From: Thermoanaerobaculia bacterium
GTDB taxonomy: Bacteria; Acidobacteriota; Thermoanaerobaculia; Multivoradales; JAHEKO01
Assembly: GCA_046756565.1 (NCBI GenBank)
Contig: JBHHWO010000003.1
Span: 144-64,143 of the forward strand
Reading direction: 5' to 3'
DNA length: 64,000 bases
This document shows positions 42,563-64,000 of the stretch, one piece after another (within the stretch, counting starts at the first letter, position 1; each line of letters begins with the position of its first letter). The translations under genes were made by a program, and so were the position numbers. The notes under the pieces are model-generated. The model worked only from the letters and a program-made list of their open reading frames with translations, was not told where the DNA came from and ran no database searches.

Positions 42563-42608
42563 CGCTGATCTCTGTGCCTATCGACTACCTGTGGAACGAC
42601 TCGCAGAC

Positions 42609-47019: not shown

Positions 47020-47089
47020 AATGGGTAACTCTGCTCACCCAGTATAGGCAGGAAACAGGCCGGTCCCCTGATACGATCCCGGCCCCGCG

Positions 47090-47725: not shown

Positions 47726-47858
47726 GTGTCCCCTTCTCGGCTGGTTTTCGGAGTCTCCTCCGGTCGCAACGGCGCATCATCCGTACGTCGCGACCTGGGC
47801 GTAGAGGAGGCGGTACCCCGATATACTCGCAGTCCCAAGACCGCCACGTTTCGCGCCC

Positions 47859-48995
47859 ATGAGCACGCCAATCCCCGACATCCGACCCGAGAGGTTCCCG
47901 ATTCCGCTCCAGACTCTGGCCGCGAAGGTCCGCGACGGCGAGCGCCTCGACGAGGCCGACGCACTGTTGTGCTTTTCGACCCCGGACATCCTTCATCTCG
48001 GGCGCCTGGCCGGAGCCGTTCGGACCCAACTCCACGGCGATGTCGCCTATTTCAACGTCAACCGGCATATCAACCCGACCAACATCTGTGTCTACACCTA
48101 CGACTGCAAGTTCTGTGGATTCGCCGCGCTCCCGGGCGAGGGTCATGCCTGGGAGATGTCCCACCAGGACGTCTACGAGCACGCCGCCAAGCAGGGCGGT
48201 GACTCGGTCACCGAGTTCCACATCGTCGGTGGACTTCACCCGGACCTCTCACTCGAGTGGTACTGCGAGATGCTCCGGGGCCTCAAGCAGCGGTTCCCGA
48301 GCGTGCATCTGAAGGCCTTCACCGCGATCGAGATCGGCTGGTTCGCGCAGCACGAAAAGATTCCGATACGCGAGGTACTGGAGCGCCTGCGCGCCGCCGG
48401 CCTGGGATCTCTGCCCGGCGGCGGTGCCGAGATCTTCCACGAGCAGGTCCGCAAGGAGATCTGCAACGGCAAACTCGATTCCGACGAGTGGATCGAGGTT
48501 CATCGGACCGCTCACGGGATGGGCATCCCGTCGAACTGCACCATGCTCTACGGCCACATCGAACAGGCCGACCACAAGGTGGACCATTTGATGCGACTGC
48601 GTCAGCTCCAGGACGAGACCCGCGGCTTCAACTGCTTCATCCCCCTGGCCTATCACCCGGAGAACAACTACATGGGGCTCAAGTACCACACCACCGGTAC
48701 CGAAGACTTGCGCCACCTGGCCGCCTCGCGACTGGTGCTCGACAACGTGGCGCACCTCAAGGCCTACTGGATCATGATCTCGCCGAAGCTGGCTCAAGTG
48801 GCGCTTTCGTTCGGAGCCGACGACATCGACGGGACGGTCGTCGAAGAGACCATCTACCACATGGCGGGCGCAGAAACCGATCAGTACATCTCGCGCGGCG
48901 AGCTCGAGCGAATCGTCCGCGAGGCCGGCTACACGCCAATCGAGCGGAACACTCTCTACCAATCGATCCGCAGCGCGGAAGCCGTGAGCGTGTGA
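47859..48995 (+). CDS. Radical SAM enzyme of the CofH/MqnC/MqnE family (futalosine-pathway menaquinone biosynthesis candidate)
   Basis: ...NICVYTYDCKFCGF... radical-SAM Cys cluster; TIM-barrel-like remainder; adjacent to ubiX. Confidence 0.7.
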   Translation: MSTPIPDIRPERFPIPLQTLAAKVRDGERLDEADALLCFSTPDILHLGRLAGAVRTQLHGDVAYFNVNRHINPTNICVYTYDCKFCGFAALPGEGHAWEMSHQDVYEHAAKQGGDSVTEFHIVGGLHPDLSLEWYCEMLRGLKQRFPSVHLKAFTAIEIGWFAQHEKIPIREVLERLRAAGLGSLPGGGAEIFHEQVRKEICNGKLDSDEWIEVHRTAHGMGIPSNCTMLYGHIEQADHKVDHLMRLRQLQDETRGFNCFIPLAYHPENNYMGLKYHTTGTEDLRHLAASRLVLDNVAHLKAYWIMISPKLAQVALSFGADDIDGTVVEETIYHMAGAETDQYISRGELERIVREAGYTPIERNTLYQSIRSAEAVSV

Positions 48996-49671: not shown

Positions 49672-51555
49672 ATGGGCTTCGAAAGTCTTGCCGCTAGCGC
49701 TTTGCGCCAGGTGCGCATACGAAATCAAGGTGGTCTCGCAGTGACACTCCCGATCGAAGAAGTCCTCGAGGGCAAGTACGAGATCCTCGAGAAGATCGGT
49801 GAGGGCGGAATCGGATCCGTCTACAAGGTCCGCCACCGGTTGCTCGACGAGATCCGGGTCATCAAGGTCCTGCGGCCCCAAGTCGCGGCCAAGGAAGATC
49901 ATCAGGAGCGCTTCCTTCACGAAGCCCGCATGGCGATTCGGCTCAAGCACCCGAACATCGCCCAACTCCACGATTTTTCGATCTCCGACGAAGGCACCGC
50001 CTTCATCGTCATGGAGTTCATCGACGGCATCGCACTCGACGCCCTACTCAAGGCCTCCGGCCCGCCCAGCCTCGATCTGACGCTGGAGATGGCGCAGCAG
50101 TCATTGCGGGCACTGGCCTATCTCCACTCTCATGAGCTGGTTCACCGCGATGTGTCGCCGGACAACTTGATGCTGACCACGTCGTTCGACGGCACCGCGC
50201 GCATCAAGCTGATCGACCTGGGCATCGCCAAGAACCTGGCCGAGGAAAGCAACCTGACACAGACGGGCGTTTTCCTGGGCAAGGTCCGTTACTGTTCACC
50301 CGAGCAGTTCTCGAGCGCGGAAGATCAGACCCGGCCGCTCGATCATCGCAGCGACATCTACTCATTCGGACTACTGCTTTACGAGCTCCTGACCGGTATC
50401 TACCCGTTCAAGGGCGAGACCTTTGCCGAGCTGGCGGGCTGCCATCTGTTCCAGCCGCCGATCGGTTTCGATCAGACGGATCCCGAGGGCAAGGTGCCCG
50501 ATGAGTTGCGCGAGGTCGTGCTGCGATCCATCGCAAAGGATCCCGAGGACCGCTTCTCTACCGCCGAAGAGTTCGTTCAGGAGCTGCTTCCGTTTCGCGA
50601 CACCGAGAGCTCGATCGAGGACGAGCTCAATCGCACGGTCGAGCGAACGACCTCAGCGATCGCTCTCAAGAACTACACTCGCCCGGGTTCCACCCAGGAC
50701 CGTCTGAACGCCGAGTTCGGGCTCGGCACCACGGCCGCGCCCAAGCCGCTGACCGAGGCTCGGCAGCCAGAAGCAGCTGGCGCAAGAGGTACGGCCTCGG
50801 CGGTATTGCCTACAGCCGGCGGCCCGGCCAAGAAATGGTGGTGGATCGCCGGAGGCGGCGCAGCCGTGGTCCTGGCGGGTCTCGGCATCTGGCTCGGTAG
50901 CTCCGTTCTGGGCCGAGACTCGGGCGACACGGCGGGTGACGGCTCCTCCGAGGCGCAGGCTATAGAGATCGCGCAGACCGAGAGATTCACTCTTCCCGAG
51001 GTTGACCCCGACCGGGTGGCTCTCGACGCCGCGCTGCCTCCTCCGCCCACCGGAGACGAAGAGAAAGCGGCCCCTCAGGTCGAACCTGGAACTGATGCTC
51101 CCGGTCCCTCCCAGCTCGGACCGGACCCGGACCCGGAAGACGGACGCCGGCCTCCGCTCGGTGACCCTCAGTTCCAGGGGAGACCCCCACCCCACGGTGG
51201 GCGTCCGCCGCCGGGGAGTCGGCCGGGAGAGCTCGGTCCACCACCGATCGGCCGGACTTCGGAGATCTATGAGACCAGCGTGGGGGTGGTCGCTCCGGTG
51301 CTGGAGATGCTGCCCGAGCCGATGTATCCGGACGGCAAGCGGCCCAAGAACCGTCTCACGGTGGACGTCGCGGTGCTGGTCGACGAGGAAGGCAAGGTGC
51401 TCACCGCCCGGGTCGAGGCCGGCGCAGGGTTTCGGCGCCGCTTTCGCGACGCCGCCATCGAGACCGCGAAGCGATCGAGATTCCGCCCCGCGGTTCGCAA
51501 CGGCGTCGCAGGCCGCATGTGGACCAGTCTCAAGATCGTATTCGAGACCGAGTAG
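49672..51555 (+). CDS. Ser/Thr protein kinase with TM helix, Pro-rich periplasmic linker and C-terminal TonB_C-like domain
   Basis: Kinase motifs IGEGGIGSVYKV, VIKVL, HRDVSPDNLML, DLGIAK, SPEQ. TM WWWIAGGGAAVVLAGLGIWLG. PPxxG-rich spacer. C-terminus ...PEPMYPDGKRPKNRLTVDVAVLVDEEGKVLTARVE...AAIETAKRSRFRPAVRNGV... resembles TonB_C. Confidence 0.8.
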   Translation: MGFESLAASALRQVRIRNQGGLAVTLPIEEVLEGKYEILEKIGEGGIGSVYKVRHRLLDEIRVIKVLRPQVAAKEDHQERFLHEARMAIRLKHPNIAQLHDFSISDEGTAFIVMEFIDGIALDALLKASGPPSLDLTLEMAQQSLRALAYLHSHELVHRDVSPDNLMLTTSFDGTARIKLIDLGIAKNLAEESNLTQTGVFLGKVRYCSPEQFSSAEDQTRPLDHRSDIYSFGLLLYELLTGIYPFKGETFAELAGCHLFQPPIGFDQTDPEGKVPDELREVVLRSIAKDPEDRFSTAEEFVQELLPFRDTESSIEDELNRTVERTTSAIALKNYTRPGSTQDRLNAEFGLGTTAAPKPLTEARQPEAAGARGTASAVLPTAGGPAKKWWWIAGGGAAVVLAGLGIWLGSSVLGRDSGDTAGDGSSEAQAIEIAQTERFTLPEVDPDRVALDAALPPPPTGDEEKAAPQVEPGTDAPGPSQLGPDPDPEDGRRPPLGDPQFQGRPPPHGGRPPPGSRPGELGPPPIGRTSEIYETSVGVVAPVLEMLPEPMYPDGKRPKNRLTVDVAVLVDEEGKVLTARVEAGAGFRRRFRDAAIETAKRSRFRPAVRNGVAGRMWTSLKIVFETE

Positions 51556-51585: not shown

Positions 51586-53811
51586 TTACAGGATCTCGAC
51601 TTCGACCGGGCCTTTGAGCCGCATCATGCAGGCCAGTCGGCACGGGCCGGCTTCGAGCTCACAGATCTCCTCCAGCGTCTCACGCTCCTGATCCGAAAGC
51701 TCGTCCACGTTTTCGGCGCCCGACAACACGCGCACGGGGTCGCTGCCGCAGATTCCGGAATGACACTCCGCGGTGATCTGCACGCCCGCGGCTTCGGCCG
51801 CCTCGCAGACGTTGGACCCGGCGGCAACCGGCACCGACTCGCCGGTACCCTTGAAGGTAGCGGTCGGGCCCTCGGCCGCGGCGCTCCCGTCCGCTTCCCG
51901 GGCAGCGCCAACGGCCGGCGGTGACTCGGCAAGGCCCTCGTCCAGAACCTCCTCGGCGCCCCGGCTGAACAGGAAGGACTGCTGTCCCATGCGGATCCGG
52001 TCTCCGTGCTCCAGGAGGCGCGCGGCGCGGACTTTCAAATAGGTGCCGTTGACGCTTTTGAGGTCCTTGATCAGGATCGCTCCGCCCTCGGCGGACACCG
52101 CGAGATGGCGCCGCGAGAGCGTCGTGTCCTCGGCGTCGAGGATCCCCCCGGGCGCCTCGCGTCCGAAGATCATCGGCTTGTCTCCGAGCTCGTAGCGTCC
52201 CTCCTCGGCGCCCGCTGCGTCGTAGTGAATCACCGCCATTTCGCCGCCATCGATCGAGAACAGCAGGAACTGGCGGCCGACACGCACCAAGTCCCGGTCT
52301 CCGACCTCGATCTTCTTGGCAGCTTGCGCGCGCAGGAAAACGCCCGTGGCTCCACCGTCGTCGCGCACGAAATAGCCTTCCTCGCTGTGCGCCACCGATC
52401 CGTGGACATTCGACAGTGTCGAGTCGTCGGCAAACGCCAGATCACAGCCGGAGCGCCCGATGGTCACGACTCCTTTGACGGGCAGCGGATACTCGTCCTC
52501 CTGGACACCCGTGGGAAGCACGCGAATCAAGAGGGGCCCAGCGGAGACCTCTTCGCGGCCGGGCTCCAGGCTCTCCTCGGGCGGGCCGCTAGGCTCCGCC
52601 GACCCGGCCGGCGTCCCGGCGACGGCGGATTCGGAGACCTCGAGCTCCGCCTCCTGGATCTCGACGTCGATCTGCTCTTTGCCGTCGATCCGCTGCCGGA
52701 TCACCTGGGCCACTCGCACGCCGTCACGCAGGGCCGACTTGATGTTGCCGCGATGCTTGACCTCCTTGAAGCCGGCAGGGTCGGCGTCGAAATCCTCGGT
52801 CTCGAAGTAGGCCTGGCTCAGCAGATCTCCCACCAGGTACAAGTTGTTCTGGCAGGTCTCGAGGCACCGATTGACCACCATGCGCTTCCTGTTCTTGGGC
52901 CCGCCGTTGACCATGTGAACCCCGAACGAGTTGAGGAGGGCTTCCGGAATGTCCTCGCCGATGCAGGCGATGACCTGCGGCTTGGGAAACTCCAGCAGAG
53001 TGAGCTCGCCGGGCCGTCCGTCCATCCGGCGCCGGTCGGTGCGAATCGCCAGGTACTCCTCTCGGTCGTCGCCGGTCAAGACGGCCACCGGCTCGCTGCG
53101 CCGGTAGTAGCGGATGTTGCCGTTGCCGACATAGGCGGCGAAAAACGCATCCGCCAGGGCCTTGGAGATCCTCGGCATCTTGTCGCCGCGGTAGGACCAG
53201 TAGACCGAAGTGCGGTCTCGGGCCTCGCTCTTGGCCTCGGAAATGGCGATCACCGCCTCGGCGGCCGAGGTTCCACCTCCGATAACGCAGGCGGGCTGCC
53301 CGACGAATCGCTCGGCCTCGGAAAGCTTGTAGGCGATGCCGTCGGTATTGCCGGGGATATCGAAGCGACGCGGTACGCCGCGGCCCAGAGCCAGGACCAC
53401 ATGACGGGCTTCGTAATGCTCGCTTTGGCGTGTCCGGTGGTTCCACAGTGTCGCGCGATAGCCGCCGTTTTCGAGTAGCTCGAGCTCCGAGAGCTCGGCG
53501 CCCACCCGGACCGGAACCTCGTGCTCTCGATAGAGCTCTTTCCATTGCTCGCACATGTCGTCTTTGTCGATCGGATCAAAATGGAGACAGGAGACCAGGT
53601 TCCCTCCCACCGGGAAGCACATCTGATCGCCGCCACCGAAGCTCGGCAGGATCAGCTTGTCCTTGGCGTAGTCGCGAATGCGCTTCATCAGGTCGTCGTA
53701 GTCGACCACCAGAACGCCGATGCCGAGCTCGACCGCGCGGAAGGCCGTGGCCGTACCGGCCGGGCCACCGCCGGCGATGAGAACGTCCACCGTTTTCGAA
53801 GACCCAGCCAT
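51586..53811 (-). CDS. Multidomain protein: two-dinucleotide-binding FAD/NAD(P) oxidoreductase, two FHA domains, C-terminal ferredoxin-like (2Fe-2S-type) domain
   Basis: VLIAGGGPAGTA and VIGGGTSAAEA Rossmann motifs. FHA 1: TIGRSGCDLAF...VFLR...VGRQFLLF. FHA 2: IFGRE...LSRRHLAV...IKDLKSVNGTYLKV...GDRIRMGQQSFLF. C-terminus ...AECHSGICGSD...CRLAC.... ATG at 53811 (4 bp after the upstream gene's stop); the track extends to 53889. Confidence 0.7.
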   Translation of the reverse strand: MAGSSKTVDVLIAGGGPAGTATAFRAVELGIGVLVVDYDDLMKRIRDYAKDKLILPSFGGGDQMCFPVGGNLVSCLHFDPIDKDDMCEQWKELYREHEVPVRVGAELSELELLENGGYRATLWNHRTRQSEHYEARHVVLALGRGVPRRFDIPGNTDGIAYKLSEAERFVGQPACVIGGGTSAAEAVIAISEAKSEARDRTSVYWSYRGDKMPRISKALADAFFAAYVGNGNIRYYRRSEPVAVLTGDDREEYLAIRTDRRRMDGRPGELTLLEFPKPQVIACIGEDIPEALLNSFGVHMVNGGPKNRKRMVVNRCLETCQNNLYLVGDLLSQAYFETEDFDADPAGFKEVKHRGNIKSALRDGVRVAQVIRQRIDGKEQIDVEIQEAELEVSESAVAGTPAGSAEPSGPPEESLEPGREEVSAGPLLIRVLPTGVQEDEYPLPVKGVVTIGRSGCDLAFADDSTLSNVHGSVAHSEEGYFVRDDGGATGVFLRAQAAKKIEVGDRDLVRVGRQFLLFSIDGGEMAVIHYDAAGAEEGRYELGDKPMIFGREAPGGILDAEDTTLSRRHLAVSAEGGAILIKDLKSVNGTYLKVRAARLLEHGDRIRMGQQSFLFSRGAEEVLDEGLAESPPAVGAAREADGSAAAEGPTATFKGTGESVPVAAGSNVCEAAEAAGVQITAECHSGICGSDPVRVLSGAENVDELSDQERETLEEICELEAGPCRLACMMRLKGPVEVEIL

Positions 53812-53815: not shown

Positions 53816-54670
53816 TCAACCTTCCTCGACCAAACGTCCCTCGAGGCGGCCGAAGACGACCCGCTCTCCGACCGGAAGCTCGACTTCACCCTCCGTCTGG
53901 GCGCCCGCCACGAACGTGTGGTTGCGGCTGCCTTCGTCGCGCACCAGCACCTTGTCGCCCGTCACGGTCACTACCGCGTGACGGCGAGAGACGTCCGGGA
54001 CGTTCAGGCGCACTCGGGCGTCCTTGGTGCGACCGACGAGGTTTTCGCCCTCGTCGAGCTGGAAGCGCTGGACTCGGCCCGCCATCTGGAGCTCCAGAAA
54101 CAGGCGGCGGCCGGGCGCACCCGGCTGCGCAGGCCTGCTTGCGCTCGCGCTCGCCTCGGCCAGGATCTCGGGAATCGGCACGACGACCTTCTCGACACGA
54201 GTACCGCCGTCGTCCGCCAGCTCCTTGGACGCGGCCGGCTTCTTTTCTGCCAGCTCGTCCTCGGACCGCTTCTCCTCGGCTCCGTCGTCGCGCAGGGCCG
54301 CCGGCAGAATTGGGATCTCGCCGTCCGTTTGCGTCTTGTCGACGGGAGGGATATCGATGGTGTCGAACTCACCGCCTTCGGTATCGAGAGCCTGAAAGAT
54401 AAACCTCTCGCTACCGCCGAAGCAGACCATGCTGAGCGGACCGATCGGCTCCGGCCGCTCGAGGCGCACGCCGTCCACTTCGGTGCCGTTCAGGCTTCCG
54501 AGGTCCTCGATCAGATACCTCTCGCTGTCGGTATCGAACGCAATCCGGGCGTGCTCGGTCGACACCACCGAAGCCTGGATGCACACCGTGCTCTCGGCCG
54601 AGCGCCCGATCGTGGCCTCGGCGCCGATCTCGAACTCACCGTGCTCGCGTGATATCAGTTTTGCCTTCAT
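53816..54670 (-). CDS. Tandem FHA-domain protein
   Basis: FHA 1: ...ATIGRSAESTVCI...VSTEHARIAF...YLIEDLGSLNGTEVDGVRL.... FHA 2: ...LVGRTKDARVRLNVPDVSRRHAVVTV..VLVRDEGSRNHTFV.... ATG at 54670 overlaps the upstream stop by 4 bp. Confidence 0.75.
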   Translation of the reverse strand: MKAKLISREHGEFEIGAEATIGRSAESTVCIQASVVSTEHARIAFDTDSERYLIEDLGSLNGTEVDGVRLERPEPIGPLSMVCFGGSERFIFQALDTEGGEFDTIDIPPVDKTQTDGEIPILPAALRDDGAEEKRSEDELAEKKPAASKELADDGGTRVEKVVVPIPEILAEASASASRPAQPGAPGRRLFLELQMAGRVQRFQLDEGENLVGRTKDARVRLNVPDVSRRHAVVTVTGDKVLVRDEGSRNHTFVAGAQTEGEVELPVGERVVFGRLEGRLVEEG

Positions 54671-56247
54671 GGTGCTTCGTCCAAGTACAAGAGTAGCTCC
54701 GACCGGCGACTCTTGTTGGGGTGGAACAGGTGGCACGTGACACAGCGATCCGACGCCAGGCGAGCGGCATGGCACCGCCGGCAGGAGTCGATCGCCGGCA
54801 GGTTCTGGATCGACGCGTTATCGAGGCTCGTATCCGGAGGGTCTTCGGCTTCGAGCTCGTCTTCGATCGGGATGCGGTCGTGGCAATCCAGGCAGCGCGC
54901 CTGCAGGATGTGCGCGCGATGATCGAACTCCGCCCGCCGCAGGGCTCGCTGGTCCTTCTGGACACGGCCGATGGTGGCGTCCTCGACCCGGTGACACTGC
55001 CTGCAGGGCGTCGTCAGCTCTTCGACCAGAAGCTCGATCGAGACCACCTCGTCTTCCGAGAGGTCGGTGCTCTTATCGCCCAGGGCCAGCTCGAAGACCG
55101 TCTCGTCGAGCGCCGCGAACGGCTCTTCCACCTCGCGCGCGAGCTTTCCGAGGAGATCCTCGATCGCGGCCAGCTCGGCCTGAATCTCTTGCTCCGGCCG
55201 GCCCCGCAACCCGATCGCCTGCTCCTCGAGGGCGCCGATGGCCTCTCTATAGAGCGCTCGCAACTCATGGGGCTCGGTGTTCGGCGAGGTCTCGAGGAGA
55301 TCGGCCAAACCCGCGCTCGGATAGAGCATCTGGCGCAGCATGCGCAGGTTCTCCAGAATCCACGGATCTCGGTGGTGGACCGGCCCCTTCACGACCAGGG
55401 AACCGCGGCGGCGATACTCGTTGGGGTCGGTGAAATACGCCCAGCGGATGCCCGCGCCCTGGTCGGCGATGATCTGCTCGAGTGTAGCCACGCCTGGTGC
55501 TCCAGCGCCGGTGCGGATCGGTAGCCCCGGAGTCGAGACCGTCGACGTCAGGTGGCAGGAGTCGCAGTGCCGATCGAAGTCGATCAGCTCGAAGCTCCGG
55601 CCATCCGGTTTGGCGTTATGGCAGTAAAGGCAGGATCTTTCGACGTCGGTGAGCTTCTGGCGCTTCATCACTTCGCGTACGTGGTGAACGTGGGCAAATG
55701 ACAGGCTCTCGTTATCTGCGATCTGCTCGGCGACGAAGTCGAACTCGGGGTGCTCGCTCGTGAAGGAATCGAAATGGCATCGCTCGCAGCGCTGGTCGGC
55801 GACACGAGTGATCGAGGCATCCCGGCCCTCGTGCTCGAGGTGACAGGTGAAGCACGGCACCTCGTGCTCTCCCGGCACCAGGCGGCGGAAATCGTCGGAC
55901 CGGAAGATGTAGTGAGCAGCGAAGTTGTACACACCCAGCTCATCCCCGAATTTTTCGTGACAGCTCGAACAGAGCTCGTCACTCGCCTGTCGCGCTTCCG
56001 GATCGTGGCAGCTCGCGCACTCACTCTCGAAGGCGGCGTGATTGGACGACAGTGGACCATTTGAAGACAAGGAGCCACGGCCCATGAACTCGTCGACCGC
56101 TATGACGCCGAGTACCAACCCGATCAGAGCCGCTCCCAGGAGCAGCATCTTGTTGCGCGCCGGTCGCGGCGGGTACGCATTGGCGACGGGAAGCTCGCTT
56201 TCGCCGAAGCTCCCTTTCTGGCCGGTCCACTTGTCCTTGGGGCTCAT
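54667..56247 (-). CDS. Membrane-anchored decaheme c-type cytochrome
   Basis: Ten CxxCH motifs (CASCH, CSSCH, CFTCH, CERCH, CLYCH, CDSCH, CRQCH, CLDCH, CRRCH, CVTCH). N-terminal signal anchor MLLLGAALIGLVLGVIAV. ATG at 56247 with a GGAG RBS. The track extension to 56415 overlaps the upstream gene. Confidence 0.8.
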   Translation of the reverse strand: MSPKDKWTGQKGSFGESELPVANAYPPRPARNKMLLLGAALIGLVLGVIAVDEFMGRGSLSSNGPLSSNHAAFESECASCHDPEARQASDELCSSCHEKFGDELGVYNFAAHYIFRSDDFRRLVPGEHEVPCFTCHLEHEGRDASITRVADQRCERCHFDSFTSEHPEFDFVAEQIADNESLSFAHVHHVREVMKRQKLTDVERSCLYCHNAKPDGRSFELIDFDRHCDSCHLTSTVSTPGLPIRTGAGAPGVATLEQIIADQGAGIRWAYFTDPNEYRRRGSLVVKGPVHHRDPWILENLRMLRQMLYPSAGLADLLETSPNTEPHELRALYREAIGALEEQAIGLRGRPEQEIQAELAAIEDLLGKLAREVEEPFAALDETVFELALGDKSTDLSEDEVVSIELLVEELTTPCRQCHRVEDATIGRVQKDQRALRRAEFDHRAHILQARCLDCHDRIPIEDELEAEDPPDTSLDNASIQNLPAIDSCRRCHAARLASDRCVTCHLFHPNKSRRSELLLYLDEAP

Positions 56248-56260: not shown

Positions 56261-57103
56261 CTAGTAGCGGAGCACCCCCCAAAGATGGAGCCCGAGAAAG
56301 ACGAGCAGCAGAAGCGACGTCGGAACGTGCAGCCAGAGCCAGGCACGCAGGGCCTGTTGCAGTGTGTAGTGCGCGTCGATCTCGAACTTGGCCCGGTAGA
56401 GCTCTTCCAGCTCATCGAGCTTTTCGGCCTCTTCCTCGGGCAGCTTCTCGCGCAGATAGCGGACCGATCGGAGTCTCTCCCGGATACCGCCGGTGATGTC
56501 GAAGAAATAGACCCACCGACGGTTCGGCGCTTGGAGCTTCGTCGCCATCGCGCTGTCGTGCAGATCCCGGATCTCGGTGGCGCTCGAGGCGGCCAGCTCT
56601 GCGGCCCGGGCGCGAATGTCGTCTACGAGCTCCGGAATCCTCTCGTAGAGCACCTCGGTCGACAGACCCGAGGTCATCAGGCGTGGGATCCAGCGCTGCA
56701 TCCCTCGCCCCGCGAGACCGCCGATCACCGTCCAGATGCTCAAGCCGAGCAGCCAGATGGTCACCCATCCCTCGGGCATTCCGAAACCACTGTGAACAAG
56801 AACCAGGAGCAGGAAGAGCGCGCCCCCATACACGTGGAGCACGAGCCAGAGGCGCGACCGGCCGAGGCCGAGGCGGCTGAAGAACGACATCGCCCGCTTG
56901 CGGGCGCTGAGCGCGGTGACCAAGAGCAGCAGCGCCGCGGCGGACCAGCCGAAGATGAGGCTGAGGGTTCCGCCCGGCGCCGCGTCCCACCAGATCGTTC
57001 CGGCGGCATACGCCGACACGACCGCCAGGCACAGGAGCACAAAGCCCCAGACGCCACCGAGTGGAGCTCCCGGCACCGAGAGACCGCTACCCGGTTCGGC
57101 CAT
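56261..57103 (-). CDS. Integral membrane protein with ~5 TM helices and four TM-embedded His (putative di-heme b-type cytochrome)
   Basis: ATG at 57103 in a TGATG junction with the upstream gene. TM helices contain ...LVLHVYGG..., ...LVHSGFG..., ...LWLHVPT..., ...LGLHLWG.... The 355-aa N-terminal extension in the track (to 58168) is an out-of-frame shadow of the upstream gene. Confidence 0.6.
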   Translation of the reverse strand: MAEPGSGLSVPGAPLGGVWGFVLLCLAVVSAYAAGTIWWDAAPGGTLSLIFGWSAAALLLLVTALSARKRAMSFFSRLGLGRSRLWLVLHVYGGALFLLLVLVHSGFGMPEGWVTIWLLGLSIWTVIGGLAGRGMQRWIPRLMTSGLSTEVLYERIPELVDDIRARAAELAASSATEIRDLHDSAMATKLQAPNRRWVYFFDITGGIRERLRSVRYLREKLPEEEAEKLDELEELYRAKFEIDAHYTLQQALRAWLWLHVPTSLLLLVFLGLHLWGVLRY

Positions 57104-58746
57104 CAGGCATCCCCCGTCAAGAGCAATTGAAACTCGTCCAGCGAGCCGATCCGAAACGCGCAGCCCTGCGGGCAGTTGCTGACGCAGGCCGGTCCGTGCC
57201 CCGTGTCCTCGCACAGGTCGCACTTCGAGGCGACCGCCCGGTTCCGTCCCCGCAGGCCGGTCGGAACCATGTCGTCGGGCCACACGGTGGCGGTCTCGTG
57301 CATCACGATGGCGTCGTAGGGGCAGTTGTTGGCGCAATTCGAGCATCCGATGCATACATCCTCGTCGACCGCCACGACTTCGCCGACACCGGCGCGGTGA
57401 ATCGCACCTGTCGGGCAGCCCACCAGGCATACCGGATCGCGACAGTGGTAGCAGGATTTGGCGACCAGCAGATTGCCGTACTTGTTGCCCTCGCGCACGA
57501 AGCGCGGCCTGCCGCCGTGTGTGTCCGCGCAGGCCCGCACGCAGTCGTCGCAACGGGTGCAGGTGTTGAGGTCGATCGCCAGGATGCTGTTGCCCTGGAC
57601 AAGGCCGCTGCGCAGCGCCACTTCGGTGAATTCGGCAAAGCCCACATTGCGGCGCGAGAAACCCGCTTCGCGAATTCGATCGGTGGCGCTCTGCCAGAGC
57701 TGGTCCTCGATCTCCGGCTGGCTCTGAATCAGCTGCTCGACCACCGTCCGGGGGATCTTGATCAGCTCCGCATACTCCACTGACAGTGCAGTCGACTGCC
57801 ATTCGTCCAGGGCCTCGACCACGAACTCGACTTCGCCCAGGGTCATTCCCTTCGACAGATAGGAGACCGCGATCTCGCCGTCGGCGTAGCCCTGCATGAG
57901 CTTGACGAAGCCCGAGCGAACGAGATAAAGGCAGTCGGCGGCCTCCCCGGCCTTGACGATCTCCTCCTCCGGCTCGCACGACACCAGCTCGACATTCTCC
58001 TTGAGCGCGTCGACAAAGACGTCGGTGCAGCCCTGGAAGAGCGGCGTGTTCTTGAGCTGAACCGCCAGCGAGCGCTCCCGGTACAGCTCGTCGAGCTCGG
58101 CCTTGAGCGCCTTCGACTTGCGCTTCATCAGCCGGAGCGCCGCCACCTTGATCTGGACCAGGCGGCACTCGCCGGCGGTCCTGGCGGTCACCGACTGCGG
58201 CCAGCCGCTCATCGAGCCGATCTCACCGATCAGCTCACCCTTGCCCAGGCGCGCCGCTGCGCCCTCAGGCAGATCGAAGTCCATGGTGGCGAGCAGCGTG
58301 ATCCGGCTCGGATCGACCCGAGTCGCCCTGCGCATCAGGACAGTGCCGCCGGCCACGGTGTCGGTCGGCGATTCGGCCGGCGAAGCTCCGATCACCGTGC
58401 GTGAAAGATCGAAGATCGGCCGGGCTCCAGTGGCTTCCGGCCCGACGCCCTGAACGAAGACTTCGACTTCGCCCTCGAGAACGTAAAACGCCAGATCGAT
58501 GTAGGTCCCCTCTTCGAAGAGAACCGAGCCGTTCGCCCAGCGCGCGATCGAGATATCGGGGCTGATCTTCTCGAGGAACCTGTCGTCGAAATCCGAGAAC
58601 AGCTCAATCGCCTTGAGCTCCTCGACCGACGGCTTGTCCGAGATCTCTGCCAGGCCGCTCTCGTCGTCGTACGAGGACCAGCGATCCCGGTACTGCTCCA
58701 ACCGGCGAAACTCGGTCTTGCCCGGCCCGAGGACCTCGTCGCTCAT
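57103..58746 (-). CDS. Fusion of two cyclic-nucleotide-binding (CAP-effector) domains with an NrfC/DmsB-like 4x[4Fe-4S] ferredoxin module
   Basis: CNB 1: ...ELFSDFDDRFLEKI...FEEGTYIDLAFYVLEGEVEV...GELIGEIG...RSVTARTAGEC.... CNB 2: ...LFQGCTDVFVDAL...GEAADCLYLVRSGFVKL...GEVEF.... FeS: CTRCDDCVRAC, CYHCRDPVCLVGCP, CIGCSNCANNCP, CDLCEDTGHGPACVSNCP. No Tat or Sec signal. Confidence 0.8.
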   Translation of the reverse strand: MSDEVLGPGKTEFRRLEQYRDRWSSYDDESGLAEISDKPSVEELKAIELFSDFDDRFLEKISPDISIARWANGSVLFEEGTYIDLAFYVLEGEVEVFVQGVGPEATGARPIFDLSRTVIGASPAESPTDTVAGGTVLMRRATRVDPSRITLLATMDFDLPEGAAARLGKGELIGEIGSMSGWPQSVTARTAGECRLVQIKVAALRLMKRKSKALKAELDELYRERSLAVQLKNTPLFQGCTDVFVDALKENVELVSCEPEEEIVKAGEAADCLYLVRSGFVKLMQGYADGEIAVSYLSKGMTLGEVEFVVEALDEWQSTALSVEYAELIKIPRTVVEQLIQSQPEIEDQLWQSATDRIREAGFSRRNVGFAEFTEVALRSGLVQGNSILAIDLNTCTRCDDCVRACADTHGGRPRFVREGNKYGNLLVAKSCYHCRDPVCLVGCPTGAIHRAGVGEVVAVDEDVCIGCSNCANNCPYDAIVMHETATVWPDDMVPTGLRGRNRAVASKCDLCEDTGHGPACVSNCPQGCAFRIGSLDEFQLLLTGDA

Positions 58747-60914
58747 CGCGATCCTCCTGTCGATCCACCGGAACCGTCAGCGCGGCCGGCCGAGACATTG
58801 GTCGGGCTGACCAGTTTGTAAAGCTCCCGGAGCCGTTTCTGAACCGCCAGGAGAAGCTCCTCGATCGACGCTTCGCCCACCTTGGGAAGCGGTTTGAAAT
58901 CCACGCCCCCCGATGCAATTCCCGCCGCCGAGCCGACGGTGGCCCCCGGGGTCAGCGGTCGCGGCGTCGGCGGGCGGAGTACCCACTCTTCCGAGCGGCG
59001 CTGCTCGGCGAACGTCGTCGTCGACCGAACCGATCCCGAGCTTTCACTCGAGCTCGCACTCTGCCCACGACCGCCCCCGGAAGAGCCCGCCGGCAGCGTC
59101 GCCACGCGCACGTCGGGTACCGGGCCCCGGGACGCGATCACGGCCCTCGCCGACGACGAGATCTCGCCGTCCGCCAGCCGGTGCTGCCAGTGGCGCACTT
59201 CGTTCATGCCGCGCACATAGTCGAAGTCCGACCCGGACGGATGCCCTGCCGACAGCAGGCGCCGATCGGTGACGTAGTGGCAGCCGGTGCAGGTCTCGGC
59301 CCGCGTCTTCGACTGGCGCAGATCCTTCTTGCCCAAACCGAGCGCCGCCAGGTGCCCGGGCCGCTGCCGGCCCAATTCTTTGCCGGCTTCGTTCTTGTGC
59401 GGCTCGAGCCAGTCCGCCGCGGGCCCGTGGCAGCTCTCGCAACCGACCCCGTCGAGCACCTCCCGCGACTCCTTGCCCGAGAGAATCGTGCCGTGGCAAT
59501 CCATGCACACCGCGCGACCGGTGGTCATTTGCGATGTCTTGACGCCATAGAGGCGCGCGATCCTGAGGACGTCGGGATCGCCGTCGAAGAACGGATTCAC
59601 CGAGCGGGAGTGCTCATGACCGAACCACCATTGGTTCTGCTCGGTGTGACAGCCGGCGCAATTGACCGGACCGATGGTCCTACGCTGCGAAGCCGGCCGG
59701 ATACGGATCTTGAACCCTCCCGCGACCCCCGCCGCCCCGGTCGATGCTGCTCGGGCGCCCGGCTCCGCAGAGGCGCCGCCGCTCGAGGCGGGCACGGTCG
59801 AGCCGGGAGAGCTTCCTTCGCTCGGCGGAGTCCGATCTCGCACACCGGAAGCACCGCCACCCGCGGCCGGGGTCCCGTCGGCCGCGGCGACCTCGAAGTC
59901 TTCCTCGGGCTCGATTCCACGAACCAGGTCATCGAGAGATGCGAGCTGCGATGCGTCGGCAGCGCCCAGAAAGCTCCTCGTCGCGCGCGCGATCGTGTCG
60001 GCGGCAGCGAGGAGAGACGCCTCGTTGCCGGGCACCGTGCGCACAGCCTTGACCGCGGCCAGCATCTCATCGACCTGAGAGATCCCGGCTGCGCGGCTGA
60101 CCGCTCGCAACTCGGACACCGCGCTTCGCACCCTGCGGCTCATCGCTTTCGAATAAATGCCGTCGACGGTCGCCTTGGCCATTCCGCGCAGGCTGTACTC
60201 GAGATCGAGCGCCCGGCCGACGACGTACATAACGCGCTTGCGCGACATGGAACGTTCGCGATTGACCGGATCGGTACGGTCGCGAAAGGATCTCAGGAAG
60301 TTGTGTCGAATCTGACCCTGGCTCCACTCGACCAGCTCGAAGCCGGCGCTGCCGGTCGTGTGTCCCCCTTCGTTCACGAGACGTTCGAGCGGTACCGAGT
60401 GGCAGCTGAAGCAGTTCGCGGCGACCGGATACAGGTCGGACGGCCGCCGCATTCCGGCGTTGCGGCTGTCCGCGATGCGCTGGCGGCGGTGCGCTGCCGA
60501 TTCTCCCGTATGGTCCTCGGCCGCACCGTAGTCGTTGTGGACGTCGAGGTAGTCCGCCCCGGCGCCGTGACACGACTCGCAAGAGACGCCCGAGACCACT
60601 CGGATCTGCCCGCTCTGGATGACCGGCGTGTAGTGGCAGCTGAAGCAGAGGCTGTCGCGCTTGATCAGGCGAAAGCCCATCTTTTTGGCGATCGTCTCCG
60701 CCTGCTCCTTCTTGTGAAGTGTCTTGAATCCGGTCGCGTGCGGAGTTGTCTTCCAGACCACCGCCTCGTGGATGTGGCATTCACCGCATTTCTCCGCCGT
60801 AACCACCTTGTTCGGGTCGATCTTGGCGTACTCGAAGAAGGGCGGTTGGGCCCGCAGGGGCGCGCACAGCGCCAGGCCGATCAGCAACACCCCCGCTACG
60901 ACTGGTCGTTTCAC
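58743..60914 (-). CDS. Secreted octaheme c-type cytochrome with Ser/Gly-rich low-complexity segments
   Basis: Signal peptide MKRPVVAGVLLIGLALCAPLRAQ. Eight CxxCH motifs (CGECH, CFSCH, CESCH, CFSCH, CAGCH, CMDCH, CESCH, CTGCH). Confidence 0.8.
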   Translation of the reverse strand: MKRPVVAGVLLIGLALCAPLRAQPPFFEYAKIDPNKVVTAEKCGECHIHEAVVWKTTPHATGFKTLHKKEQAETIAKKMGFRLIKRDSLCFSCHYTPVIQSGQIRVVSGVSCESCHGAGADYLDVHNDYGAAEDHTGESAAHRRQRIADSRNAGMRRPSDLYPVAANCFSCHSVPLERLVNEGGHTTGSAGFELVEWSQGQIRHNFLRSFRDRTDPVNRERSMSRKRVMYVVGRALDLEYSLRGMAKATVDGIYSKAMSRRVRSAVSELRAVSRAAGISQVDEMLAAVKAVRTVPGNEASLLAAADTIARATRSFLGAADASQLASLDDLVRGIEPEEDFEVAAADGTPAAGGGASGVRDRTPPSEGSSPGSTVPASSGGASAEPGARAASTGAAGVAGGFKIRIRPASQRRTIGPVNCAGCHTEQNQWWFGHEHSRSVNPFFDGDPDVLRIARLYGVKTSQMTTGRAVCMDCHGTILSGKESREVLDGVGCESCHGPAADWLEPHKNEAGKELGRQRPGHLAALGLGKKDLRQSKTRAETCTGCHYVTDRRLLSAGHPSGSDFDYVRGMNEVRHWQHRLADGEISSSARAVIASRGPVPDVRVATLPAGSSGGGRGQSASSSESSGSVRSTTTFAEQRRSEEWVLRPPTPRPLTPGATVGSAAGIASGGVDFKPLPKVGEASIEELLLAVQKRLRELYKLVSPTNVSAGRADGSGGSTGGSR

Positions 60915-62410
60915 TAGAACTTCAAGACCAGTTCAAAGCGTCCGCCAAAGCCGGTCAGGTCGTCCGAGGCGCCGAGGCCCTCGATGTAGCTCGCGAAGCC
61001 GTCCCAGACCAGGACCACGTGTTTTCCCTTGGCCATCTGGTAGCGAACGGTCGCGGCAGCCTGGTTAGCCACTCCGGAGGCCGTTCCGACCCGAAGACCG
61101 AGTTCGCCGAGCAGCTGGCGGCGAGCCAAGGGACCGTAGAACTTCTGGTAGCCGATCGCGCCGCCGGCGACGTTCCGCGCCCGGCTCGACAGCGGCGCCC
61201 CGTAGTTACCCAGGCCGACCGCGGCAAACGAGACTCCCGCGGGACCCAGCGGCCCGCCCGAAGCCGGCCCACTCGCCGCCGCCGAGTACTCGTCGAGCGC
61301 CAGGAAAGTCGTGAAATAGAACAGATCGAAGCTGTGGTGCGGGGTCCAGGACACCTCGCTGAAGAGCAGCGTGCCGTCGGTGGCAAACGCAGTCTCCTCG
61401 TCCAGGGCAAGCGAGCTCAGGAGTCGAAACGACGTATTGATTTTCCCGATGCGCTGAACCGCACTCACACCGACGCCGACAAGATCGCCGCTCGAGTCGC
61501 TACCGGTCACGTAGGCGAGATCGACATCGATGGTCGAGGTCCGGACATCGGTCGAGGTCAATACCGCAAACAGCTCGGCGTCGCCGTCTTCCACATTGTT
61601 GCGATGCAGGTCGCTCGCCCCGAAGAACAAGGTCGCTCGAAAGTTCGACGTGTTCTTGGGCAACAGGGTGTTGCGAGTGATCCCGACGCCATCTATCGAG
61701 TCATTGATCAGCATGCCTTCCTGGAAGATCAACAGCTGCCGGCCGATCGAGAAACCGACGTCGGTGCGTCCGAAGTCCTGCTTGTCGATCCCCGGAAAAA
61801 TCTCGCCGAACTCACCCTCGAAGTACAGACTCTGGATCTCGGCGTTGAGCTCATCGCGGAAGGCGTCGTCGTCGCCAAACAGCGCCTGGAACTCGGGGCT
61901 CCGCGAGCTGGGCTCGAGGATGTAGCTGGTGAACCGGCCGTCCTGGTCGAAATTGCGGAAACCCAGCACCAGCCGCTCGGTTCCGGTGAGCTGCAAGTTG
62001 GCGAACAGATCGAGCCGATTGGCCCACTCGGTGATCCGGAAGTCGTCGACCTCGAAACTCTGGATCGCGCTGCGCAGCGTGCCGAAAACGATCAAGGTCG
62101 GCTGCCACACGGCGCCGGTCGGAAGCTTGAACCCCGGATTGATGTTGCCGGTGCCCAGATACGGATTGCCCAGCTCGAGCAGAAGCCGTGGCCGCTCGGG
62201 AAGATCCTCGAGCAGCGGAATGTACTCGTCGGTAACCGCGCTCGAGTCATGGGCGCCGTCGTCGCTTTCGCCGTGCGCCTCCCCGACCTCGGGGTCTGAA
62301 GCGACTTCCACCGCGACCGCCGCATGGGCCGGTACACCGGCTCCGGTGGCAAGCAACAGAATCAGACCACCGGCCGCCGCGAGGAGTCCGAGGTCTCTCC
62401 TGCGAGTCAT
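60914..62410 (-). CDS. Outer-membrane beta-barrel protein (porin-like) encoded inside the cytochrome operon
   Basis: Signal peptide ...LLAAAGGLILLLATGAGVPAHA. Alternating amphipathic beta-strand pattern throughout. C-terminus ...GGRFELVLKF ends in the aromatic residue typical of OMP terminal strands. Confidence 0.6.
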   Translation of the reverse strand: MTRRRDLGLLAAAGGLILLLATGAGVPAHAAVAVEVASDPEVGEAHGESDDGAHDSSAVTDEYIPLLEDLPERPRLLLELGNPYLGTGNINPGFKLPTGAVWQPTLIVFGTLRSAIQSFEVDDFRITEWANRLDLFANLQLTGTERLVLGFRNFDQDGRFTSYILEPSSRSPEFQALFGDDDAFRDELNAEIQSLYFEGEFGEIFPGIDKQDFGRTDVGFSIGRQLLIFQEGMLINDSIDGVGITRNTLLPKNTSNFRATLFFGASDLHRNNVEDGDAELFAVLTSTDVRTSTIDVDLAYVTGSDSSGDLVGVGVSAVQRIGKINTSFRLLSSLALDEETAFATDGTLLFSEVSWTPHHSFDLFYFTTFLALDEYSAAASGPASGGPLGPAGVSFAAVGLGNYGAPLSSRARNVAGGAIGYQKFYGPLARRQLLGELGLRVGTASGVANQAAATVRYQMAKGKHVVLVWDGFASYIEGLGASDDLTGFGGRFELVLKF

Positions 62411-64000
62411 CGTCCCGCCTCCCCGGTCGCGGCGCCTCCGGTGCCACCGGCCGTCCGGACTTCCCCGACCCGGGCCTCGATCTCCTGCTGCCAGAGCACC
62501 TGATGGCCGGCGACCACCCGCTCGGCAATCTGTTTGGTCGTCAGGCCATAGTCGAAACCGACGATCCTGATTCGGTTGACCAGGTTGACCGGCAGCATTC
62601 CGGCCACCAGCTCGACCCGGATCTTGTAGGTCCCCGAACCGCTGAGCTGGGACGGCTTCACCTTGTACTTCGGGTAGCGCCGGCCGGCGGGCTCGATATT
62701 CTGCTTGTGCTTGCGCGCCCCGCGCGGCCGGCCGGTGAGAATCGTCGAGGTCGTCGACGGCCGCAGAAACGGCAGCGGATCGGGCGAGAAGTTGAGTGCC
62801 AGAATCTGCTCGCGCTCGCCGCCGCGCACCATCCGGGTCAAGAACCGGCCCTGGAGGCTGAACAGCTGCTTGTCGAGCGGCAGCTCGCCGTTGTGGACGT
62901 AGAGCGAGTGGTTGTCGCGCAGATCGCCGTTGGGATCGAGATCGCCGGACCGGAAAACGACGTTGCCGTCGGGGCCGGTTACAGTCACCCGCAGGAATAC
63001 CACTCGCTCGGCGTCGAATCCCGTCGGCACGCCGTGCCCGTCGGTGCCATTGGCGACCTCGACCTGAAACACCAGGCCCTTCTCGGGATCGGCCTTCAGA
63101 ATCTCGACGCCCATCAAACGGTAGGCCACGCGGAGAATATGACGGCGCTGGCGATTGGCCTCGGCCAGAAGCTCGATGTTGTCGGTCAGGATGTCGCGAG
63201 CGTCGTAGCGGTCATCGGCCGAGCTCCAGTGCTCGGGAAACTCGTAGTCCTCGGCCACATTTGTCTCGAACTCGTCCGTGCCCCAGCCGGCCTCGTGGTC
63301 GTAAGTCAGCCACTGCCGGATAGTTGCCAGCTCCGAGGCGGCGGTGTTGTGCGGAAAGATTCCGGGATGGATGACCGAGTGGTCAGGCCCGATAAACATG
63401 TGGTTGGTGATCCGTCGTGTCCGCGTCGGCTTGCCGCCGACCACGGCGGCAGGGCCCTCCGGGTAGCCCGAGTCCACACCCGGCTCCGTGCCCATGTGGC
63501 AGTCCTGGCAGGAGACGCCCTTCCTGGCCGCCGGCGAGGTCTTGAACTCGCTGAACGCCTCTTCCAACCGGAAGCCGTTGACCAGATTCACATCGTGACA
63601 GGTCGCGCAAAAGCCCGAAGTGGTGAGCTGTAGGAATTTCTCTGCCTTTCCGTGGATCGCTCGCCCAGCCTTGCCCCGCTCGGGATTCACCCGGTAATCG
63701 GAGCTCTCGATGACGCGCGCGACCTCGACGTTGCCCTCGGGACCGTAGACGGGATCGAAAAGGTCACCGCGCTCGATCGCCAGGCGACCGGAGAGCTTGC
63801 CGTAGTTGCGGTTGACGCGATGGCAGACGACGCAGGTCACGCCCTCGCGCGAGGTCGGGTGCCGGTCCATGTTGGTCATGAACTCGGGCTCCTCGAGATT
63901 CATCCCTACCGGATCGTGGCAGCGGATGCAGAAGTCTCCGTTGGTGCCGTTGGTGATGACCAGGACCGCCCCCTGCATCGCGTTGAAGATCGGGCTCATC
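62407..64000 (-). CDS. Multiheme c-type cytochrome, partial (N-terminus lies beyond the window end)
   Basis: At least four CxxCH motifs in the visible part (CIRCH, CVVCH, CATCH, CQDCH). The frame is open to the window edge. Stop overlaps the OMP start (ATGA-type, 4 bp). Confidence 0.7.
   Translation of the reverse strand, partial: MSPIFNAMQGAVLVITNGTNGDFCIRCHDPVGMNLEEPEFMTNMDRHPTSREGVTCVVCHRVNRNYGKLSGRLAIERGDLFDPVYGPEGNVEVARVIESSDYRVNPERGKAGRAIHGKAEKFLQLTTSGFCATCHDVNLVNGFRLEEAFSEFKTSPAARKGVSCQDCHMGTEPGVDSGYPEGPAAVVGGKPTRTRRITNHMFIGPDHSVIHPGIFPHNTAASELATIRQWLTYDHEAGWGTDEFETNVAEDYEFPEHWSSADDRYDARDILTDNIELLAEANRQRRHILRVAYRLMGVEILKADPEKGLVFQVEVANGTDGHGVPTGFDAERVVFLRVTVTGPDGNVVFRSGDLDPNGDLRDNHSLYVHNGELPLDKQLFSLQGRFLTRMVRGGEREQILALNFSPDPLPFLRPSTTSTILTGRPRGARKHKQNIEPAGRRYPKYKVKPSQLSGSGTYKIRVELVAGMLPVNLVNRIRIVGFDYGLTTKQIAERVVAGHQVLWQQEIEARVGEVRTAGGTGGAATGEAGR

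Follow-up and report, generated by a model that had tools for sequence, protein, structure and literature searches.

The question raised by this locus is what a protein does that joins a tandem cyclic nucleotide-binding (CNB) fold to a four-cluster iron-sulfur (Fe-S) ferredoxin module, and what its sensor half reads. The protein is encoded by an open reading frame (ORF) of 547 amino acids (aa) at 57103..58746, on the minus strand, of a 64,000-nt stretch of DNA (hereafter, the window) from a Thermoanaerobaculia bacterium (GCA_046756565.1, contig JBHHWO010000003.1). A first-pass annotation had read this ORF as a fusion of CNB domains and ferredoxin, working with a membrane cytochrome under the control of cyclic AMP or cyclic GMP (cAMP/cGMP). 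The fusion was borne out by the Pfam scores, the predicted fold and 16 conserved Cys, and it is a real, strongly conserved sensor-plus-wire fusion of a type that has already been described: by sequence and synteny it is PtdE, a member of the ptd operon and the Fe-S subunit of PCC4 subgroup II. We consider it probable, at roughly 60%, that PtdE is the regulated wire subunit of the PCC4/Ptd trans-envelope electron conduit, carrying electrons outward from NAD(P)H, with the CNB tandem as a gate or docking module.

PCC4 was described as a porin, cytochromes of the periplasm that have 4, 5 and 10 haems, an inner-membrane protein (IMP) that is conserved, and further proteins with redox activity, and in its subgroup II an Fe-S (pfam13247) gene lies upstream of the IMP gene (He et al. 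2017, PMC5566968). The operon was named ptdABCDEFG by Elbon et al. (bioRxiv 10.1101/2023.11.21.568154), who call PtdB a porin and whose Table S7 lists, for Sulfidibacter corallicola CP071793, the proteins QTD51412-51417 as A, B, D, E, F and G and QTD51419 as C. This genome is one of the loci that we compared (L043); its PtdE is 57% identical to that of the window, and its eight genes stand in the same order. We identify the window gene as ptdE because of the gene order, the haem counts and the full synteny with the Sulfidibacter genome listed in that table. The layout is that of the published operon, i.e. pentahaem, porin, tetrahaem-type, CNB-FeS, di-haem with five transmembrane helices (5-TM) and decahaem proteins. 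With respect to the published operon, however, the window has an extra FHA gene and a linked kinase, the protein in the PtdD position is octahaem by duplication whereas the published PtdD is tetrahaem, and the 16 conserved Cys of the window family imply four clusters in PtdE, whereas the ptd preprint counts two 4Fe-4S clusters.

An NCBI protein from a Thermoanaerobaculia metagenome-assembled genome (MAG) (P0001), named 'cyclic nucleotide-binding domain-containing protein', matches the window protein at 100% identity. The fusion was also looked for in other genomes. More than 2600 homologues were found, the top 120 of which, full-length and 61-100% identical, are those we refer to as close homologues; an exhaustive search of 1.84 billion cluster representatives gave a family of 674 clusters at 50% identity (E<=1e-30), spanning many phyla. 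The AlphaFold2 (AF2) model of PtdE, built from 103 family members, has a mean predicted local distance difference test (pLDDT) value of 81.7, with low confidence only at aa 1-30 and 100-159. A 15-residue Kyte-Doolittle scan found no hydrophobic segment anywhere in PtdE, N-terminus included (maximum 1.17 in the whole protein, 0.28 in the first 70 aa). There is therefore no Sec or Tat signal, and PtdE is predicted to be cytoplasmic, in agreement with the first-pass annotation.

The ferredoxin module occupies aa ~385-540 (57127..57594, minus strand). Its four Cys motifs are C396xxCxxCxxxC, C432xxCx4CxxxCP, C465xxCxxCxxxCP and C509xxCx8CxxxCP. Among the 103 aligned family members Cys 396, 399, 402, 406, 432, 435, 440, 444, 465, 468, 471, 475, 509, 521 and 525 are invariant and C512 is conserved in at least 90%; these 16 conserved Cys are the number expected for four predicted [4Fe-4S] clusters. 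When checked against Fer4 models, the motifs matched: Fer4_11 scored 34.6 bits against a cut-off of 26.2, and Fer4_9 and Fer4_7 were also above theirs (aa 390-540). The motifs had been described as arranged as in NrfC/HybA/PsrB, which is correct for the presence of four motifs and for the superfamily, but the nearest solved relatives of aa 387-538 are cytoplasmic, namely HycB3 and HycB4 from the hydrogen-dependent CO2 reductase (7qv7, E 2.7e-16 and 1e-14) and then HycB of E. coli formate hydrogenlyase (7z0s, E 1.1e-12). Ethylbenzene dehydrogenase beta, PsrB ('NrfC protein' 2vpw; 2vpw_B E 1.8e-11), ArrB, NarH and FdnH came after them. All the NCBIfam equivalogs scored on PtdE stayed below their cut-offs (DmsB 62.6 vs 214, NrfC 38.6 vs 377.6, HybA 37.8 vs 263, FDH-beta 37.1 vs 334.7, HydN 48.7 vs 260).

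By these scores PtdE is assigned to the ferredoxin superfamily and to none of the DmsB, NrfC, HybA, FdnH and HydN orthologue groups. It resembles HycB/HycB3/HycB4/HydN (7z0s, 7qv7) in Cys pattern, cytoplasmic location and electron-wire role; these proteins, however, have no CNB domain, and they pair with soluble or membrane-arm enzymes where PtdE would have a di-haem membrane protein. The NrfC/HybA/PsrB/DmsB/FdnH proteins share the superfamily (Fer4_11) with PtdE, but they lie on the periplasmic side (Tat-dependent or hitch-hiking) with NrfD- or FdnI-type partners, whereas PtdE is cytoplasmic and has no signal. Membership of the FdnH/FdnI or HybA/HyaC pairs was rejected for the wrong membrane side and for equivalog scores far under the cut-offs.

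The next gene, ptdF (56261..57103, minus strand), encodes a 280-aa 5-TM putative di-haem b protein, the IMP of PCC4, assigned from its His conservation, motifs, transmembrane (TM) segments and AF2 model. The stop codon of ptdE (TGA) shares its A with the ATG of ptdF in the TGATG overlap (GCCTGATGGCC), and the junction sequence confirmed what had been noted before about this stop/start overlap with a His-rich 5-TM protein. PtdF has five hydrophobic helices (AF2 pLDDT 90.7). For the IMPs of PCC3 and PCC4 the published signature comprises five helices, a W-x3-H-x13-H motif on each of TM3 and TM5, and SGxxG on TM4; it was compared with the ferric-reductase/NOX domain and with cytochrome b (He et al. 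2017, PMC5566968). The W-x3-H-x13-H part occurs twice and identically in the window PtdF, as W86-x3-H90-x13-H104 on TM3 and W255-x3-H259-x13-H273 on TM5, and H90, H104, H259, H273 and H245 are conserved in 118-119 of 120 homologues. The TM4 motif reads A-S-G-L-x-G in the family consensus and I-G-G-L-A-G, with Ser replaced by Gly, in the window. Pfam matches of the family, to three families of two-haem cytochromes, are weak or sub-threshold (DUF4405 in 65/117 members, Ni_hydr_CYTB in 46/117, Ferric_reduct in 7/117).

Since the published signature is present on both TM3 and TM5, PtdF is likely a di-haem b protein. The loops that follow TM2 and TM4, and the linker of natural fusions (see below), are rich in Arg and would place its N-terminus inside; with this topology, H90/H259 would hold the haem on the cytoplasmic side and H104/H273 the one on the periplasmic side. 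H245 (118/120), which precedes H259 by exactly 14 residues and shares its long helix, belongs to an invariant D-A-H-x-T-L-Q motif at the cytoplasmic side. As no His on TM3 pairs with it, H245 is outside the two-haem model; it may be an electron entry point or a contact for PtdE.

That PtdE and PtdF work as a pair is suggested by the translational coupling of their genes and by natural fusions of the two, P0093 (826 aa), P0106 (822 aa) and P0242 (828 aa), in which PtdE continues at its C-terminus, through a linker rich in Arg, into TM1 of PtdF. He et al. (PMC5566968) likewise point to an annotation of this fused kind in Oceanospirillum. Among the 52 genome loci with enough downstream sequence, 43 have a PtdF-like ORF of 233-308 aa with H-x13-H pairs at -16 to +93 nt from the ptdE stop. 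The loci L034, L037-L042, L046 and L054 (Cytophagia, KSB1 and unclassified MAGs) have PtdE homologues of 53-61% identity and no PtdF-like gene directly 3′; the next ORF, if any, is ~270-360 nt away and has no His pairs, and the membrane partner may be elsewhere or different.

The first-pass annotation had compared PtdE and its neighbour with FdnH/FdnI or HybA/HyaC-type pairs. The pairing with a haem-b-type membrane protein agrees with the His motifs, the fusions and the 43/52 loci; the closer topological analogy, however, is NarH/NarI, where a cytoplasmic four-cluster protein is docked on a di-haem b subunit as we propose for PtdE on PtdF, or a split NOX. The likeness to the NOX/FRE ferric reductase domain consists of His pairs ~13-14 residues apart on TM3 and TM5 and of a cytoplasmic NAD(P)H-flavin module (PMC5566968 for the comparison with this domain), and the window system resembles a NOX split into subunits. 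PtdF differs from NOX/FRE in having five and not six helices and a ~105-aa cytoplasmic helical insert before TM5; furthermore, an Fe-S wire stands between flavin and haems in Ptd, and the Ferric_reduct match is sub-threshold.

The candidate cytoplasmic partner of PtdE is the product of the gene in the PtdC position (51586..53811, minus strand), a TrxR/YpdA-like FAD/NAD(P)H flavoprotein in which two FHA domains stand between the flavin part and the 2Fe-2S ferredoxin domain at the C-terminus (Pfam Pyr_redox_2, FHA and Fer2). It has 741 aa from its ATG, or 767 aa from a GTG at 53889; the NCBIfam matches YpdA, FhaB and fdx_isc were all sub-threshold, and its Sulfidibacter counterpart is the protein listed as PtdC. 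While the PtdC slot is filled in the window by Pyr_redox_2 plus Fer2, at the 3′ end of the operon, in the distant locus L068, which has the classic A-B-x-C-D-E-F order, PtdC consists of NAD_binding_1 plus Fer2, with no FHA domain. The occurrence of an FHA-bearing TrxR/YpdA-like PtdC and of a PtdC of FNR type looks like a non-orthologous replacement. In L066 an NAD_binding_1 protein and a small separate Fer4 protein precede PtdE, and in the single chain P0271 the domains Fer2, FAD_binding_6, NAD_binding_1, CNB and Fer4 are all joined. We read NAD(P)H as the input because two unrelated NAD(P)H-ferredoxin reductase scaffolds fill the PtdC slot and direct fusions occur, which argues that the chain has NAD(P)(H) at its cytoplasmic end.

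The CNB-Fer4 module recurs in several architectures. P0254 has a NuoG-like Fer2_4/Fer4 head (2Fe-2S/4Fe-4S) ahead of it, and P0254, P0268, P0285 and P0294 (739-954 aa) have 250-400 extra N-terminal residues, some with three CNB stretches. Another long member, P0273, is on a contig too short for its gene context to be read.

The N-terminal half of PtdE contains two CNB domains. CNB1 (aa ~46-215, 58102..58611, minus strand) was delimited from the two stretches of Pfam cNMP_binding, the AF2 strands and helices and Foldseek, and CNB2 (aa ~229-345, 57712..58062, minus strand) from its best Pfam stretch at aa 255-342 and an alignment with SthK. Pfam cNMP_binding (PF00027) scored 84.1 bits on the whole protein against a cut-off of 27.5, and 38.7 bits on the N-terminal 231 aa alone; the stretch at aa 255-342 is intact, and the other domain is interrupted (aa ~60-97 and 163-205) by a disordered insert of ~60 aa in CNB1 (aa 100-159, 58270..58449, minus strand; pLDDT 27-39). 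The best Foldseek matches of this half are the tandem CNB-A/B domains of PKG I-beta and PKA-R (E ~5e-17), and a beta-roll with cassette helix is present in the tandem A/B layout. In PKA-R and PKG, however, the output is kinase inhibition and not an Fe-S domain, and the 60-aa disordered insert is peculiar to CNB1 of PtdE. Two motifs, conserved in at least 108/120 close homologues, are tied to this insert: PIFDxxRT inside it, near its start, and ITxLxxMDFDLP across its C-terminal boundary. There is also a conserved K-T...Q..DRW motif at the N-terminus of PtdE, and the presence of conserved Thr in disordered regions beside FHA and kinase genes suggests phospho-regulation.

The cassettes themselves depart from the canonical ones. 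The CNB1 equivalent (58174..58239, minus strand) reads G-E-L-I-G-E-I-G-S-M-S-G-W-P-Q-S-V-T-A-R-T-A, and not 'RSVTARTA' at its end as first quoted, which was a misreading of P-Q-S-V-T-A-R-T-A. By column counts, the Gly-Glu pair G174/E175 and each of W182, P183 and Q184 are present in 120/120 close homologues. HMMER aligns 'SGWPQSVTA' of PtdE to 'SGEPRSATV' of the MlotiK1 CNB domain, with Gln184 opposite the phosphate-binding Arg R348; hence the canonical phosphate-binding Arg (CRP R82, MlotiK1 R348) is absent from CNB1, where Gln184 stands instead in 120/120. An alternative register with R189 at the phosphate site was rejected, as P183-Q184-S185 aligns with P-R-S of MlotiK1 and as representatives with the canonical Arg carry Arg at the R189 position too. 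What CNB1 keeps in its pocket is the Gly-Glu pair and Ser185, and what it has lost is only the charge partner of the phosphate. The CNB2 cassette, GMTLGEVEF..DEWQSTA (GEVEFVVEALDEWQSTA), has no Arg and is 2 aa longer than that of SthK, with whose CNB domain CNB2 aligns best; its Gly-Glu pair is conserved (G304 in 120/120, E305 in 115/120), and the best-aligned Arg position, 317, is E58/Q43/R14 in the close homologues.

We therefore describe the CNB domains of PtdE as complete folds and, by alignment, incomplete canonical sites for cyclic nucleotide monophosphates (cNMP): of the two complete CAP-type domains with cassettes first annotated, the tandem fold and the Gly-Glu pairs stand, while neither cassette has the canonical phosphate Arg. 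The loss is not a feature of the whole family. When the best 150 cluster representatives are aligned to the family profile, position 184 is Arg in 111 of them, Gln in 15, His in 4, Val in 3, Ala in 2, Asn and Gly in 1 each and a gap in 13; the canonical P-R-[ST]-A-T is retained in 111/150 distant representatives, and the Q184-type sequences are exactly the nearest relatives of the window PtdE. The same split is seen within the operon type, as CNB1 position 184 is Gln in the window and Arg in the classic-order cluster L068/P0340. Because 111/150 keep the canonical cassette and only the nearest relatives are of Q type, the ancestral module was probably cNMP-binding and has been altered in the window clade. 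The strong conservation of the CNB1 pocket argues against a dead domain, and because this conserved pocket has no Arg for a cyclic phosphate, the effector of the CNB tandem in the window clade is probably not cAMP/cGMP.

On these grounds, the reading that we prefer is the following. NAD(P)H would reduce the FAD of PtdC, and electrons would pass to the 2Fe-2S domain of PtdC, then to the four [4Fe-4S] clusters of PtdE, and from these to the inner and then the outer haem b of PtdF, across the membrane. From PtdF they would go on to PtdG, the anchored decahaem, then to the cytochromes of the periplasm and to the porin-cytochrome at the outer membrane. Such an export would be quinone-independent and NOX-like. 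By thermodynamic reasoning, the outward direction should be favoured, because NAD(P)H is a low-potential donor and outward electron movement runs with the membrane potential. Outward electrogenic flow would also use up NAD(P)H and lower the membrane potential, like NOX, and would therefore need gating or heavy regulation.

The tandem CNB fold at the N-terminus would provide this gate, or a docking module. In PKA, PKG and Epac-type proteins, ligand binding shifts the helices following the cassette. In the AF2 model of PtdE the helices after CNB2 (aa 344-380) lead straight into the first strand of the ferredoxin module, and a conformational change after CNB2 could alter the docking of PtdE to PtdF or PtdC. 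Control would probably be exerted via the linked FHA domains and Ser/Thr kinase, and/or by a different small ligand. Phospho-Thr-dependent control is a reasonable alternative input, because there are four FHA domains encoded in the operon and a Ser/Thr kinase gene next to it.

Several points weigh against the conduit proposed here. PCC4 subgroup I has no Fe-S gene, and the membrane protein can thus function in the absence of PtdE; moreover, the model of He et al. runs from an extracellular donor to the quinone pool, i.e. in the opposite direction (PMC5566968). According to Elbon et al. (bioRxiv 10.1101/2023.11.21.568154) the function 'remains completely unknown', and the PCC4 paper is alike in this. 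A PtdF-like ORF directly after ptdE is absent in 9 of 53 loci, one of which (L058) is an unrelated Fer4-only match. Gln at position 184 could still hydrogen-bond a phosphate. Finally, the flow direction, which we propose opposite to the published one, and the function of all family members are read from sequence, and the role assigned to the CNB tandem is pure inference.

The other genes of the operon are all on the minus strand. A multihaem cytochrome in the PtdA position (62407..63999), assigned from Pfam, CxxCH count and synteny, has at least 4 CxxCH and is cut by the window end. The PtdB position (60914..62410) is occupied by a secreted protein of 498 aa ending in ...LKF, a putative outer-membrane porin by its signal-like N-terminus, its synteny and the porin of the ptd paper; no Pfam or NCBIfam match was found for it. 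In the PtdD position (58743..60914) there is an octahaem cytochrome with a signal peptide and two c554-like tetrahaem halves (8 CxxCH; Cytochrome_C554 7.8e-24). Its CxxCH motifs are at 43/90/112/168 and 419/470/492/542, and the matching spacing of the halves, joined by an Ala/Gly/Ser/Pro-rich linker, marks an internal duplication. The PtdG position (54667..56247) holds a decahaem c-type cytochrome (10 CxxCH; Pfam Cytochrome_C7/CIII) with an N-terminal membrane anchor (hydrophobic aa 34-50), and an unnamed slot (53816..54670) a double-FHA protein of 284 aa (Pfam FHA 2.6e-30 in two stretches), syntenic in most loci.

The genes are closely packed: the ATG of ptdE overlaps the stop of the octahaem gene (ATGA), the ATG of the double-FHA gene overlaps the stop of the decahaem gene (ATGA), and the junctions from PtdA to the PtdC slot are, in order, ATGA, TAGTG, ATGA, TGATG, an 11-nt gap, ATGA and a 5-nt gap. 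The eight genes are one tightly packed operon, conserved across phyla. In a tblastn comparison of the eight window proteins with 57 related genome loci, the PtdE-PtdF-PtdG trio was found in more than 40 loci and all eight genes in ~25, in Thermoanaerobaculia, Holophagales, Acanthopleuribacteraceae, Rhodothermales, Calditrichia, Ignavibacteriales, Zixiibacteriota and other groups.

Convergent on the 3′ end of the operon, on the plus strand, there is a gene for a Hanks-type Ser/Thr kinase with a C-terminal TonB_C domain (49672..51555; Pfam Pkinase 5.9e-45, TonB_C), which is likely the partner of the FHA domains of the operon. A Pkinase gene is in the same position in L001, and kinases are also present at L062 and L067. 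The first-pass annotation was silent on the published PCC4/ptd operon and on these linked FHA and Ser/Thr-kinase genes. Upstream of the kinase, 34912-48995 encodes a UvrD-type helicase, GlmS-like and GlmU-like proteins, CofD, a CofH/MqnC-type radical SAM enzyme, a chorismate mutase/prephenate dehydrogenase, a NYN/LOTUS protein and a DAO-type glycerol-3-phosphate oxidoreductase, housekeeping genes none of which is obviously tied to the operon.

A more novel reading, which we consider less likely than not, holds that the regulatory input was swapped within the conduit family: cAMP/cGMP would gate the clades that have P-R-[ST]-A-T together with a PtdC of FNR type, while the window clade, of Acidobacteriota/Rhodothermales type, would have replaced Arg by an invariant Gln in a pocket under strong selection and gained FHA domains on PtdC, the separate double-FHA protein and the Ser/Thr kinase. 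The CNB tandem of this clade would respond to a ligand that is not cyclic, or would be a docking hub for phospho-Thr and FHA via PIFDxxRT in the insert. Either input would gate an electrogenic, quinone-independent, NAD(P)H-driven export, i.e. a prokaryotic NOX split into subunits. An Arg-less cassette goes together with FHA and kinase genes in the window type and in L062 (His at the Arg position, three FHA domains, two kinases), and no FHA genes were seen in three Arg-type clusters (L064, L066 and L068); L067 has two kinases upstream. With these few loci, the association between an Arg-less cassette and FHA/kinase genes is too thin to be claimed.

The gating first proposed, in which the tandem CNB binds cAMP/cGMP and the second messenger directly gates electron transfer between Fe-S protein and cytochrome b, is unlikely for the window protein. 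In its favour, the fold is intact, as is the Gly-Glu pair in each cassette; very strong purifying selection acts on the CNB1 cassette, suggesting a functional pocket; and distant members keep P-R-[ST]-A-T, from which the ancestral module was probably cNMP-binding. On the other hand, careful alignment revealed the loss of key residues of the phosphate-binding cassettes, as Gln184 replaces Arg in 120/120 and CNB2 has no Arg, with an E/Q/R-variable position in its place; with both cassettes Arg-less, cAMP/cGMP control of PtdE is not supported. There is also a precedent in the trypanosome PKA-R, which like the window PtdE has a cassette without Arg. The PDB titles of its structures among the Foldseek matches include 'cAMP-independent', inosine and guanosine structures and a mutant with a T318R-containing triple mutation, which we take to mean nucleoside binding instead of cAMP and, via T318R, a need for Arg. 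In addition, no nucleotide cyclase gene was seen among the scanned neighbour genes in the window. For distant family members with P-R-[ST]-A-T, cAMP/cGMP control is plausible from their cassettes.

Doubtful to a similar degree is an inward flow, in which an extracellular or periplasmic donor (Fe(II), Mn(II), an N or S intermediate) would feed PtdF and then the quinone, or a cytoplasmic acceptor via PtdE and PtdC, in a NarI/NarH-like loop. The NarH/NarI layout, in which a four-cluster protein stands on a di-haem b subunit, fits this direction. It is also the direction proposed for PCC4, which is found in Fe(II) oxidisers (PMC5566968), and the ptd paper reports presence in nitrite oxidisers and similarities to nitrogen-cycle enzymes (bioRxiv 10.1101/2023.11.21.568154). 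However, the cytoplasmic partner is a flavoprotein of the NAD(P)H-ferredoxin-reductase type, in two unrelated versions; to reduce NAD(P)+, electrons from Fe(II)-type donors would have to go uphill in potential and against the membrane potential; and the quinone site in PtdF is hypothetical.

Although a CNB fold with Fe-S recalls FNR, and FNR-family regulators are among the weaker matches of CNB2, we rejected as very improbable that PtdE is mainly an FNR-like redox/O2 sensor with labile Fe-S that regulates the complex and does not carry electrons, since the Pfam scan gave no DNA-binding or output domain in PtdE, the 16 Cys in a HycB-type four-cluster chain are a wire architecture, and the module occurs fused to the membrane protein as well as to NAD(P)H reductase modules.

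PCC4/Ptd clusters are widespread (674 clusters, many phyla) and are transcribed in marine oxygen-deficient zones. In the sensor-on-wire design of PtdE, post-translational control would act directly on an electron-transfer subunit, which is rare; the Arg/Gln split within the family is a clean handle on what the sensor domain reads, and a cultured host, Sulfidibacter corallicola M133, carries the eight genes. If the chain is as proposed, electrons would be carried from cytoplasmic NAD(P)H to the cell surface, bypassing the quinone pool, which would bear on how uncultured Acidobacteriota and their relatives cycle metals, balance their redox state and transfer electrons extracellularly.

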